A stretch of DNA of 64,000 nt from sequence record MT446392.1. One strand, written 5' to 3'. This DNA comes from Escherichia virus TH15. The first letter of the stretch is position 1. Every line of letters begins with the position of its first letter. The notes under the pieces were generated by a model, which saw nothing but the letters and a program-made list of their open reading frames with translations, was not told where the DNA came from and made no database searches. Positions 2,630 to 61,808 of the stretch are shown here, in pieces. The position numbers were made by a program, and so were the translations under genes.

Positions 2630-3949
2630 TTAAGATGCAAATATTATAGGTATACGCCCATGATTATTATTTTTAATAACCTGAATATAGATGTCAGAAT
2701 CAACATAATCATTTAAAGACCCGGTTGGAAGCATTTTTAAAGTATACCAAAAACCTGTGGCTTTATCTATAATTTCTGCAGTTGAACCTTCTCGACACTT
2801 ATCAAAAGAAATGTTATCCCATGTTACCCATGAGCTAGTCAGGTTTAAATTATTATCTGACTTGTTTTCTAAGCCAACCGCGTCATAGTTTGTGGTTCTA
2901 CGATAAGAATATGAAGCTGGCAAAGAGTCATTAAATCTTTTGACACTGATATCAAATGTGTTTTTAGTTGTGACTTTATATTTCATAGAAATATTAGTAT
3001 CAGCTAGTTTGACCGTGGCTTCAGCATTAGGAGAAGACATTGAATTAAAGCTTAAAATAATTTCCCAATATTTCTTAGGTTCAAATGGTTTAAGCTTGTC
3101 ATATAATTCCTCTAATTGAGATTCTGTCAAGCTGCCAATATCAAGAGCAGGGCCTTGAGGGCCTTGTGCACCGTCTATACCATTTTTACCAGGGTCGCCT
3201 TTTAATCCTTGCAGGCCTTGTGGTCCTTGAGGGCCATCTGTTCCAGCAGGACCTTGGTCACCTTTATCTCCTTTATCACCCTTGTCTCCTTTTGCGCCAG
3301 CCGATGCCATTATGGCCCAATCGTCATTTGACGGCAACGGCGGAATACCGGTATGAGTCGTAAGACTAAAATAGGTAGCTCCTTGGTACGCTACGGCGTC
3401 ATTTGGTACATACTCAATAGATATATCATATTCACCTTTCCATATTAATCCTGTTGCTCCTGCGGGGCCCGGGTCGCCTTTAGGACCATCTAGACCATTT
3501 TTACCCGGGTCGCCTTTAGGACCTTGAATACCTTGAATACCTTGAGGGCCGGTAGCCCCATCAATGCCGTTAGTTCCATCAGCCCCTTTAGGACCTTGAA
3601 TACCAGGTGCACCATCCATCCCGTGTACACCTGCCAGGCCTTGGGGACCTTGTAGACCATCTATTCCAGCAGGACCTTGTGGTCCTGGGTCACCTTTTAA
3701 TCCTTGTGGGCCTTGAATGCCCTGGATACCTTGGTCGCCTTTTGGGCCTACTGCGCCATCAGAAATTCCTATAAATGTCTTTGCTTCTTCTGAAGTAGCT
3801 TTAGTTAAAAATTCTAAACTCCAATCGGTAGTTGAACTTGTCGTAATAAGGTCTTCTACTTGTTTTGTATTACCTGCCTCTGGATTTCTAATGGTTTTGC
3901 CAGAAAAGTTACCTCTACCATCATGCCCAAACAATCTTTCGTCAGCCAT
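2630..3949 (-). CDS. collagen-like protein with two Gly-X-Y tracts and a C-terminal globular domain
   Basis: 439 aa; residues ~66-167 and ~217-267 are uninterrupted G-X-Y triplets; late promoter 36 nt upstream. Confidence 0.8.
3149..3301 (-). repeat. collagen Gly-X-Y triplet tract 2 (about 17 triplets, includes [11 protein letters not shown])
   Basis: Read from translation. Confidence 0.8.
3449..3754 (-). repeat. collagen Gly-X-Y triplet tract 1 (about 34 triplets) within collagen-like CDS
   Basis: [22 protein letters not shown]... periodicity read from translation. Confidence 0.8.
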
Positions 3950-3984: not shown

Positions 3985-3992
3985 TATTTATA
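3985..3992 (-). promoter_or_regulatory. T4-type late promoter TATAAATA for collagen-like/hoc-like operon
   Basis: Plus strand TATTTATA = minus TATAAATA, 36 nt upstream of ATG at 3949. Confidence 0.7.
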
Positions 3993-4041
3993 CTGTTTAC
4001 AAGTTAAAAATTCTATGTTAGGATAGCTTCACTAACTCAAC

Positions 4042-4245
4042 ATGAGAATCATTATGGATAAGGTTAAAGTACATTTTTTACATGAATCGGGTATGACATT
4101 TATTGAAATCGCCAAGGTATTGGGCGGGACTGCTAAAGAAATGGCAAAGGCATGGGTTGATGTAGAACACGCCAAAACCAAATTTAAAGCCAAAGAGAAA
4201 GTTGTGTATCGTAAACGTTTGAATAACAAAAAGGTGAAGAAATGA
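4042..4245 (+). CDS. hypothetical small basic protein
   Basis: 67-aa ORF with ATG; position corresponds to T4 24.3/24.2 region. Confidence 0.4.
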   Translation: MRIIMDKVKVHFLHESGMTFIEIAKVLGGTAKEMAKAWVDVEHAKTKFKAKEKVVYRKRLNNKKVKK

Positions 4246-44533: not shown

Positions 44534-44607
44534 GGCCCTGTAGCTGGACGGTCAAGCGAGCGACTCATAATCGCTGGATGGTGGTTCGATTCCACCCAGG
44601 GCCACCA
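44534..44607 (+). tRNA. tRNA with anticodon CAT (Met, or Ile if lysidine-modified as in T4 tRNA-Ile), encoded CCA
   Basis: Manual fold: acceptor GGCCCTG/CAGGGCC, anticodon stem AGCGA/TCGCT, loop CTCATAA, T-arm GGTGG-TTCGATT-CCACC. Confidence 0.8.
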
Positions 44608-44741: not shown

Positions 44742-44817
44742 CGAGGCATAGCTCAGAAGGAAGAGCAAGGACCTTCTAAGTCCTAGGTCGTAGGTTCGAT
44801 TCCTACTGTCTCGACCA
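44742..44817 (+). tRNA. tRNA-Arg (anticodon TCT), encoded CCA
   Basis: Manual fold: acceptor CGAGGCA/TGTCTCG, D-stem GCTC/GAGC, anticodon stem AGGAC/GTCCT, loop CTTCTAA, T-arm GTAGG-TTCGATT-CCTAC. Confidence 0.85.
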
Positions 44818-58972: not shown

Positions 58973-59332
58973 ATGGTAAGAGTCATAACTTTAGCCATAG
59001 GGTTAGTATTCAGCACGGGAGGAATAGCTTCAGTACAGAGCGATGATAATAATAGCATCATAGAATATGCAACGAGGACGGCCAAAGATTATTGTGCATC
59101 AAGCAATGTGGATTGTGTAATCCAGTTTAGTGCCAAACTCACTGCTGCATATAAAGACGGTCAAAATGATGTTGAACACACTCTTATGAAAAAGAGTATT
59201 TTATCCAACAAATATGAAAAGAAACTATTTGAAATGGATTGTATTCTGTCGAGTGCCAAATATAAAGCGGCCTGCACCAGTATGGTTGACAGGTTAGTCG
59301 ATTCCTATAACAGAGGATTGAACTCTAAATGA
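58973..59332 (+). CDS. small secreted protein (signal peptide, 4 Cys)
   Basis: 119 aa; translationally coupled to upstream gene. Confidence 0.45.
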   Translation: MVRVITLAIGLVFSTGGIASVQSDDNNSIIEYATRTAKDYCASSNVDCVIQFSAKLTAAYKDGQNDVEHTLMKKSILSNKYEKKLFEMDCILSSAKYKAACTSMVDRLVDSYNRGLNSK

Positions 59333-59793
59333 TTGTTAACTATATTAAGGGCGATATTGTCGCCCTTTTTCTCGAAGGAAACATCATAGCTCATGGCTGT
59401 AATTGTTTCCATACAATGGGTTCAGGCGTTGCTGGCCAACTGGCAAAGGCTTACCCAAAAATTTTAGAAATGGATAAGACATCAACTGAATACGGTTCCC
59501 GAGAAAAACTCGGTGATATGTCTATCGTTTTTAAACATAAACCAACTGGATTTGGTATGTGCTATAACCTTTATACCCAGTATGAACCGGGTCCAAATCT
59601 GGATTATGGTGCTTTAGTAAATTGCATGATAGAATTAAATCGACAAGCAGAATCCCTTTTGTTCAAGCCTGTGATTTATATTCCCAGGATTGGATGTGGT
59701 ATTGCAGGTGGTGATTGGGATAAGGTTTCCCGGTTAATTGATATGTTTACTCCTGACATTGATTTGATAGTGGTGGATTATGAGTCAAACTAG
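59329..59793 (+). CDS. TARG1/OARD1-like macro domain protein (ADP-ribose processing)
   Basis: 154 aa; blocks YIKGDIVA, IIAHGCNCFHTMGSGVAGQLAKAY and IPRIGCGIAGGDWDKVSRLIDMF resemble TARG1-type macro domains as remembered. Confidence 0.65.
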   Translation: MIVNYIKGDIVALFLEGNIIAHGCNCFHTMGSGVAGQLAKAYPKILEMDKTSTEYGSREKLGDMSIVFKHKPTGFGMCYNLYTQYEPGPNLDYGALVNCMIELNRQAESLLFKPVIYIPRIGCGIAGGDWDKVSRLIDMFTPDIDLIVVDYESN

Positions 59794-60177: not shown

Positions 60178-60750
60178 ATGGCGAGTTTAATTTATCATTA
60201 CGCAGCAATGAATGCAGGCAAAACAGCTTCATTGCTGACTGCAGCTTATTCCTATAAAGAGCGTGGAATGAGTGTGCTTTTGCTAAAACCTGTTATTGAT
60301 AATCGGGACTCGGAATCTGAAATTAAATCACGTATTGGTATTAGCCAGGAAGCAAACCTGGTAACGGCCGACATGAACCTGTTTGAATTCTATAAATGGG
60401 CCGAGTCTCAAAAGGATATCCATTGTGTCCTGGTTGATGAAGCTCAATTTTTGTTACCAGAGCAAATTGACCAGTTAGCACGAGTGGTTGATAATTACAA
60501 TATCCCCGTTATGTGTTACGGGTTAAGAACAGATTTTCGGGGTCAATTATTTCCCGGTTCAGCCAGACTTCTGGCTATTTCGGATAAACTGGTTGAATTA
60601 AAGGGCGTCTGCCATTGCGGCCGGAAAGCAACCATGACCGCTCGAGTAATCGACGGTGCTGCTGTAAAGGACGGCGAGCAAGTGTTAGTCGGTGGGAATG
60701 AATCGTACGTATCTTTATGCAGGAAACATTGGCTCGAATTGACAAGCTGA
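60178..60750 (+). CDS. tk: thymidine kinase
   Basis: 190 aa; MASLI..YAAMNAGK.ASLL.AA..YKERGMSVL.LKP.ID.RDS matches T4 Tk. Confidence 0.96.
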   Translation: MASLIYHYAAMNAGKTASLLTAAYSYKERGMSVLLLKPVIDNRDSESEIKSRIGISQEANLVTADMNLFEFYKWAESQKDIHCVLVDEAQFLLPEQIDQLARVVDNYNIPVMCYGLRTDFRGQLFPGSARLLAISDKLVELKGVCHCGRKATMTARVIDGAAVKDGEQVLVGGNESYVSLCRKHWLELTS

Positions 60751-60757
60751 GGTCCTT

Positions 60758-61033
60758 ATGATATATAAGATTTGGACGTATATCTCTATTTTTGTTATTG
60801 CTGGAATTGCATTTATCCCCACACAAACAGATAGCGAGAGATATGAAAGGGAAATTGAAATAGTAGCAAGCACGTACCATTCTGTTAATAAAGAATGCCC
60901 GAATAAAAATGGAATAAATTTACAAAAAGCACATTATATGCTGACTGTTACTAGCCCAGTGCAAAGAATATGGGTTGATAGACATTTTTCTGATTTATTT
61001 GCAATATATTGTTTCAAGTTTAAAAGATTATAA
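60758..61033 (+). CDS. hypothetical small membrane protein
   Basis: 91 aa, N-terminal hydrophobic helix. Confidence 0.4.
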   Translation: MIYKIWTYISIFVIAGIAFIPTQTDSERYEREIEIVASTYHSVNKECPNKNGINLQKAHYMLTVTSPVQRIWVDRHFSDLFAIYCFKFKRL

Positions 61034-61036
61034 ATA
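61029..61036 (+). promoter_or_regulatory. T4-type late promoter TATAAATA on plus strand
   Basis: Exact octamer 72 nt upstream of lipoprotein ATG 61108. Confidence 0.45.
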
Positions 61037-61107
61037 CAGTTACTAACTAGTATTCCGCTATGTTAAGGCTGCAAAGCGTAATCATGACCAACAATAAGGA
61101 GTCCTTT

Positions 61108-61404
61108 ATGGACCTTATTCGAGGACTTTCTCTAAGTCTATTACTAATGGGCTGTTTAGGCCCAAATCTGTCCTCTGCTACAGATGGTAAATTTACCCAG
61201 TATGCAGATAGTGCGATGCAAATCTATTCGCAATTCAAAGAACCCAGCGTCGAGCAGTCCGAACAATTTTGGGCTTTTATTAAAACCGAATGGAACAATA
61301 AGAGTCAATGTGTAAATGAAATCACATGTCAAATTGATGGCCGGGCTGCTGCAGTCGAATACGCTAAATTAATGAAGGTAAAATTGGAAGATGAAATTCG
61401 ATGA
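61108..61404 (+). CDS. putative lipoprotein (lipobox LLMGC)
   Basis: 98 aa from ATG 61108 with strong SD TAAGGAG; signal plus Cys. Confidence 0.5.
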   Translation: MDLIRGLSLSLLLMGCLGPNLSSATDGKFTQYADSAMQIYSQFKEPSVEQSEQFWAFIKTEWNNKSQCVNEITCQIDGRAAAVEYAKLMKVKLEDEIR

Positions 61405-61774
61405 TTTCGTAACAGGTCGTGGGTCTGAGGTGGATTCATACATTGGGTGGCTATTAACCTCTTTAGCATATTTTAAGTCCGCCCATCTTGAAACCAAAAG
61501 TTACGCCCGCCATAAAGCTTATGATTTCTACTTCACAGAAATCCAAGGTCCACTCGACCAGTTCAGTGAGCAATGGTTAGGTTACAGCGGGAAACAATAC
61601 AAAGCTGCATTACCGTCCGCCTCGGACTTGCCGAAAGATACAATTTTGTTTTTAGATGAAATGATTAAAAGCTCGGAAAGAGTCTATAAAGTTGTACCCA
61701 AGGCTATTCAATCGACTCTGGACGATATCGTTGGAGTTTTCTTTCAGACTAAGTATCTGTTAACACTAGAGTAA
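61391..61774 (+). CDS. hypothetical protein
   Basis: 127 aa. Confidence 0.5.
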   Translation: MKFDDFVTGRGSEVDSYIGWLLTSLAYFKSAHLETKSYARHKAYDFYFTEIQGPLDQFSEQWLGYSGKQYKAALPSASDLPKDTILFLDEMIKSSERVYKVVPKAIQSTLDDIVGVFFQTKYLLTLE

Positions 61775-61780
61775 TTCAAA

Positions 61781-61808
61781 AGGTCTGCCTTCGGGTGGAC
61801 CTTTTTTC
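61781..61808 (+). terminator. intrinsic terminator (GGTC...GACC hairpin plus T6)
   Basis: Read directly. Confidence 0.6.

Follow-up and report, generated by a model that had tools for sequence, protein, structure and literature searches.

A short open reading frame (ORF) that carries a lipobox-like motif and follows a late-promoter octamer raises two questions: what its product does, and how that product is held at the membrane. The ORF encodes 98 aa and occupies, with its stop codon, 61108-61404 (+) of the 64-kb stretch of DNA analysed here (the window). It starts with the ATG at 61108 and its product begins MDLIRGLSLSLLLMGCLGPNLSSATDG. A preliminary description took the product for a putative, late-expressed lipoprotein that might block the phage's own receptor or shield progeny from the debris of lysed cells. 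The elements on which that description was built are all found in place. The octamer TATAAATA is at 61029-61036 (+), where it overlaps the TAA stop codon (61031-61033) of an upstream 91-aa ORF; the ATG is 72 nt from its last base. The lipobox-like LLMGC is also present, at residues 12-16 (codons 61141-61155, with the Cys16 codon at 61153-61155).

The 98-aa ORF is nested in a longer mechanical ORF of 114 aa, which begins at ATG 61060 and is the form annotated in some GenBank records. Starts at ATG 61060 and ATG 61084 were considered and rejected; they lack a ribosome site, and homologues begin at MDLIR. A Shine-Dalgarno sequence, AAGGAG, is found at 61096-61101 (+), with a 6-nt spacer to ATG 61108.

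Identity of the ORF as rI

As had been proposed, the ORF is a genuine gene whose product is exported. It is identified as rI (61108-61404, +), which encodes the antiholin responsible for lysis inhibition in T4-like phages; the probability of this assignment is about 0.93. The protein scores 104.1 bits with Pfam family PF24205 ('T4-like virus antiholin family'), whose cutoff is 27 (E 3.5e-30; positions 8-95 of the 96 in the profile are covered). It also matches PHROG 1246 ('lysis inhibition') at 6.4e-32. No Pfam family beyond the antiholin matches it at E <= 10, and the PHROG search returns nothing but lysis-inhibition PHROGs. It shares 100% identity with the 'lysis inhibitor regulator RI' annotated in GenBank for vB_EcoM_VR7 and VR20, and about 35% with T4 RI. 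Since rI is already known and annotated, the finding itself is ordinary; re-identification of the gene in a VR20-like coliphage is routine.

The predicted structure agrees with this assignment. A phmmer search of the PDB aligns residues 26-96 with T4 RI chains 6PSK/6PSH at 2.6e-9. The AF2 model, built with 41 homologues, has a pLDDT of 82; this exceeds 90 over residues 31-90 and is low at residues 1-20. Helices are modelled at residues 24-40, 48-65 and 71-88. Foldseek matches the model to 6psk_R (E 6.3e-5, TM 0.88 on the target, rmsd 1.2 A, 36% identity); T4 RI is the sole significant match in the PDB, and the next unrelated match has an E of about 0.8. The model and the homologues define a periplasmic helical domain at 61180-61401 (+) that contains the C68/C74 disulfide pair and is predicted to bind holin T. 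C68, C74 and G78 are invariant across the 41 homologues.

T4 RI binds the periplasmic domain of holin T via a hydrophobic 'interface 1'; T4 mutations at F30, M34, Y42, S53+E54, F56 and Y57 weaken or abolish lysis inhibition (PMC11413866). In the phmmer alignment, T4 residues F30, M34, Y42, S53, E54, F56 and Y57 correspond here to F29, A33, Y40, S51, E52, F54 and W55. All seven positions are kept or conservatively replaced, within the residue sets reported as conserved in the same study (PMC11413866). Since the holin gene lies outside the window, the partner holin is inferred from near-identical genomes: VR20 holin T is 53% identical to T4 T and keeps the RI-facing residues R104, Y110 and F111.

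Gene order around the ORF is as in T4: vs.1-vs-tk.4-tk, one small ORF, rI, rI.-1 and the mobD genes, with tk at 60178-60750. The Tk.4 homologue (59329-59793, +) is a macro-domain protein (PF01661, 1.4e-8). The surrounding 2 kb of DNA is 98.6-99.2% identical to VR20/TH40 (Gaprivervirus, Tevenvirinae); the window is assigned to a Gaprivervirus, a coliphage of the VR20/TH40 type. Elsewhere in the window there are genes for tRNA-Met (CAT; 44534-44607, +) and tRNA-Arg (TCT; 44742-44817, +).

Homologues were sampled by an exhaustive representative search, from annotated phage records and from the supplementary alignment of PMC11413866. Word-index protein searches yielded very few homologues. A related-locus search with the flagged protein returned three VR phages only, and one with the metagenomic relative P0006 returned none.

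T4 RI (PF24205; PDB 6PSH, 6PSK, 6PX4 and 6PXE) is 97 aa long, against 98 aa here. The two proteins share a 24-residue export signal with Ala at -1 in the same position, the helical fold, the disulfide cysteines and the interface-1 residues; they also share a place between tk and rI.-1, and holin T is present in the genome of the closest relatives. Family, fold, contact residues and synteny are thus those of RI, and near-identical genomes supply the partner holin. By analogy with T4, the protein would bind T and would confer lysis inhibition; a literature search found no lysis-inhibition data for VR7.

In the proposed mechanism, RI would be exported via Sec by its N-terminal signal. The periplasmic helical domain (residues about 25-97, with the C68-C74 disulfide) would then bind the periplasmic domain of holin T through interface 1. 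Binding would block oligomerisation of the holin; upon superinfection, hole formation and the release of endolysin would be delayed.

Proposed late promoter, leader and transcript

The octamer TATAAATA is assigned as a T4-type late promoter -10 element (61029-61036, +) on the basis of exact match, enrichment and conservation in relatives. The window contains 19 copies where 5.4 +/- 2.1 are expected; none of 100 shuffles reaches 19. The copies are segregated by strand: 14 fall within the first 30 kb (3985-29073), all of them minus-strand, and the five plus-strand copies lie from 38 kb onwards (38369-61036). This segregation fits late-gene blocks in opposite orientations. One minus-strand copy (3985-3992) is found just upstream of a 439-aa ORF (2630-3949, -) with long collagen-like G-x-y repeats.

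In Gapriver- and Dhakavirus relatives, the octamer is conserved where a membrane ORF of 91-92 aa ends, 77-97 nt upstream of the rI ATG; VR7 carries a one-base variant, AATAAATA. The T4 rI operon (rI.1, rI and rI.-1) is served by an early promoter 3.3 kb upstream and by a late promoter between tk and rI.1 (PMC2962797). The T4 late promoter is gp55-dependent and has exactly the same octamer, also upstream of the rI operon. It lies before rI.1, at -258 from the rI ATG, whereas the octamer here is directly before rI, at -79; the position differs because the intervening gene differs. A distance similar to that of T4, before an rI.1 homologue, is found in Karam-, Jiaoda- and Moonvirus. The linkage to a late promoter that was claimed for the ORF is reasonable: a T4-type octamer stands ahead of rI, it is enriched and conserved, and there is a precedent in T4. 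Judged from the octamer and from T4, late expression of rI is plausible.

The intervening gene is the 91-aa ORF at 60758-61033 (+), which has an N-terminal membrane segment and belongs to PHROG 6298, where no function is assigned. It occupies the slot of T4 rI.1, and its product gives no BLASTP alignment with T4 RI.1. The ORF is annotated at the same place in VR20, P479, IME08, WG01 and VR5. T4 rI.1 is thus absent here, replaced by an unrelated membrane ORF of 91-92 aa in the window and in Gapriver- and Dhakavirus relatives. This replacement may matter functionally, since lysis inhibition in T4 reportedly involves RI.1 as a toxic accessory factor.

The late transcript would start at about 61042-61044, judging by the position of the octamer. 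The gene rI may be transcribed both by read-through from early genes upstream and from its own late promoter, TATAAATA at 61029. Downstream, rI.-1 (DUF5856; 61391-61774, +; Pfam PF19174 5.8e-31, PHROG 858) shares 14 nt with the 3' end of rI, and the two genes are probably co-transcribed; the arrangement is the same in T4. An intrinsic-terminator-like hairpin (61778-61805, +), with a 12-bp stem plus a T run, follows directly after the rI.-1 stop codon; a late message of rI plus rI.-1 ending at this hairpin is therefore likely.

The presumed late transcript has a 5' untranslated leader at 61043-61107 (+). RNAalifold on the leaders of five relatives predicts 12 pairs, of which two show compensatory changes, which is weak evidence for structure. 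Two small stems are common to Gapriver- and Dhakavirus. One hairpin has a GNRA-type tetraloop, GGCU-GCAA-AGCC in Gaprivervirus and GGCC-GAAA-GGCC in Dhakavirus, with a compensatory pair.

The ribosome site of rI had been called strong, but the Shine-Dalgarno sequence and the start codon lie in a predicted hairpin (61093-61119) in which AAUAAGG pairs with codons 3-5 (dG -8.5 kcal/mol), so the site and with it the translation of RI may be attenuated. Analogous hairpins with different stem sequences are predicted in T4 (-10.4 kcal/mol), P479 (-11.6 kcal/mol) and Virsaitis27 (-9.7 kcal/mol). The hairpin of the window has a z-score of -1.4, against -2.0 to -2.5 for those of the three other phages.

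Lipid anchor or signal peptidase I cleavage

The N-terminal export signal of RI spans residues 1-24 (61108-61179, +) and aligns with the T4 RI signal peptide. It consists of an n-region MDLIR, an h-region GLSLSLLLMGCLG and a c-region PNLSSA, followed by TDG. A candidate signal peptidase I (SPase I) site, S22-S23-A24 / T25 (61171-61182, +), is indicated by the -3/-1 rule and by the position of the T4 site: Pro is at -6, Ser at -3 and Ala at -1, and the A24/T25 junction matches A24/N25 in T4. Weak hydrophobicity and a richness in Gly and Ser make the N-terminal segment resemble the SAR domains of the P1 Lyz and phage 21 R endolysins; unlike these, it has a clear -3/-1 cleavage motif.

Inside this signal is the lipobox-like L13-M14-G15-C16 (61144-61155, +), identified by a PROSITE-type rule and by conservation. 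The PS51257-type rule applied here reads {DERK}(6)-[LIVMFWSTAG](2)-[LIVMFYSTAGCQ]-[AGS]-C, where the Cys has to lie at 15-35 and a K or R among the first 7 residues. It is matched by GLSLSL-LL-M-G-C, with Cys16 and Arg5. The strict lipobox [LVI][ASTVI][GAS]C is not matched, due to Met at -2 (LMGC). P479/SP18 carry ILGC at this place, and P0006 carries the canonical LAGC. The T4 signal has L-S-F-V-L-S-P where L-M-G-C-L-G-P is found here, so a lipobox is present here and none in T4.

The window yields 1678 start/ORF combinations of 40 aa or more; besides rI, only three ORFs match the PROSITE-type rule, all with TTG starts. These matches look spurious; the one that was inspected, 4229..4032 (-), is antisense to an ATG-start ORF. 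The Pfam lipid-attachment models are uninformative, as they match neither the flagged protein nor the positive controls Lpp and RcsF.

Two fates of RI have to be weighed. In the first, the lipobox would be functional: Cys16 would receive its lipid from Lgt, and LspA would cut in front of it; the chance of this is about even. RI would then be a lipoprotein tethered by a linker of 8-9 residues, as against the uncleaved signal peptide that holds T4 RI.

The formal match to the PROSITE-type rule, with Cys at 16 and Arg5 in the n-region, argues for lipidation, as does conservation of the motif. [GA]-C-[LM]-[GSA]-P does not vary across Gapriver-, Dhaka- and Winklervirus and the metagenomic lineages P0004, P0006 and P0007 (the Cys lineages), though the remaining h-region has diverged and their identity to the flagged protein over the mature domain is just 38-50%. 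RI proteins of the T4, RB69, Moon, Karam and Slopek types do not have the motif. When Cys and non-Cys lineages are compared at similar divergence of the mature domain (identity 0.43 vs 0.40), the stretch of seven residues that precedes the conserved Pro is 53% identical among the former and 13% among the latter. The flanks are equally free in both groups: the preceding h-region is 15% vs 21% identical and the c-region 25% vs 22%. The adjacent Gly, Leu and Pro codons vary synonymously, so the constraint acts on the protein; for Cys16 itself there is no synonymous change, all sampled Gapriver, Dhaka and Winkler sequences having TGT.

In the alignment published with PMC11413866, [LVIM]x[GA]C is found in about 48 of 168 RI sequences, from five genera, and this too favours lipidation. 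T4 RI inhibits the holin while still membrane-anchored, and its slow cleavage appears to be selected (PMC11413866). Activity in the anchored state makes a permanent lipid anchor functionally plausible. The signal also resembles those of Sec/SPII lipoproteins, including phage lysis lipoproteins (the o-spanins lambda Rz1 and T4 PseT.3, and the exclusion lipoprotein T5 Llp), in its short n-region with Arg, its h-region of roughly 10 residues, its L-x-G-C with Cys16 and the turn-formers (G, P, N) after the Cys. The flagged protein has no sequence or fold relation to the spanins or Llp; its Met at -2 and Leu at +2 are unusual among such lipoproteins, and it has a conserved SPase I site eight residues after the Cys.

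Several features speak against lipidation. Firstly, Met at -2 departs from the strict lipobox. Secondly, Leu at +2, found in seven of the eight Cys lineages, is atypical for E. coli lipoproteins; under the E. coli +2 rule, Leu at this position predicts sorting to the outer membrane, away from the holin. Thirdly, hydrophobicity continues beyond the Cys (C-L-G-P), which resembles a type I signal, and these lineages conserve the SPase I site to the same degree: seven of the eight Cys-lineage representatives have Ala at position 24 (-1), and P0007 has the Ala one residue earlier. Cys is also common in RI signal peptides, where it makes up 4.6% of residues. Finally, Gly occurs near this place in the h-region of several non-Cys lineages (T4, Merlin and PhT2) as well, so it may be ancestral and not selected together with Cys. 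On this evidence, the odds of lipidation are left roughly even.

The other fate is processing as in T4, which is somewhat short of an even chance: a Sec/SPase I signal would be cleaved slowly after Ala24, and Cys16 would be a mere h-region residue that is never lipidated. The signal peptide of T4 RI is cleaved after Ala24, as determined experimentally; this replaced an earlier model in which RI has a SAR domain (PMC8385771). The n/h/c layout is the same here, with Pro -6, Ser -3 and Ala -1 at identical positions, and the presence of Cys somewhere in the signal of 34 of 56 sampled RI N-termini also speaks for this fate. It leaves unexplained why [GA]-C-[LM]-x-P is fixed in signal peptides that have otherwise diverged. 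In addition, a good lipobox in an exported precursor that is slowly cleaved would be expected to serve as a substrate for Lgt.

Lipobox-like motifs are also seen in other genera. The Jiaodavirus RI of Klebsiella phage BovinicusUrsus (L014 417-704) has LVLGC with Cys14, and the Lazarusvirus RI of Acinetobacter phage Abraxas (L016 432-710) has MLVGC followed by S, with Cys13; both motifs precede an SPase I-type site. Close relatives lack the motif (HMGUkp2 LGVC, PhT2 LLGI), so it may have had more than one origin. An NJ tree built on the mature domain lacks the resolution to judge whether the Cys-bearing lineages are monophyletic.

Receptor blocking or debris shielding by a late-expressed lipoprotein, in the manner of T5 Llp or Cor, is very improbable: the formal lipobox and the late-promoter octamer are all that speak for it, no Pfam (E <= 10) or PHROG family other than those of RI matches, Llp and Cor have no sequence or fold similarity to the flagged protein, and its mature domain, a helical bundle of 75 residues, agrees with the holin-binding structure of a clear RI antiholin. 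Family, contact residues, cysteines and the VR20 holin T make delay of holin triggering, and not receptor masking, the best-supported function.

Implications for lysis inhibition in T4-like phages

The identification of rI corrects a wrong functional guess, that of a receptor-blocking lipoprotein. That a subgroup of RI proteins conserves a dual processing signal is a modest side observation. A literature search found no description of it and no report of a lipoprotein RI; PMC11413866 and its 2021 predecessor PMC8385771 make no mention of lipoproteins.

A subgroup of T4-like phages may have turned RI into a true lipoprotein, in which a lipid anchor at Cys16 replaces the transient signal-peptide anchor; this falls just below an even chance. 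The subgroup may comprise Gapriver-, Dhaka- and Winklervirus, and possibly Jiaoda- and Lazarusvirus, or about 29% of the 168-sequence alignment. Since a T4-type SPase I site is retained, two processing routes could exist (LspA or LepB, followed by Lol sorting or DegP turnover). If so, these two routes could set how long active antiholin persists beside the holin.

How RI is attached to the membrane has been disputed for T4; a SAR domain was proposed, then a cleavable signal peptide, then activity as an anchored precursor. A natural, conserved lipobox variant would be a ready-made test of whether permanent anchoring is compatible with lysis inhibition or tunes it.
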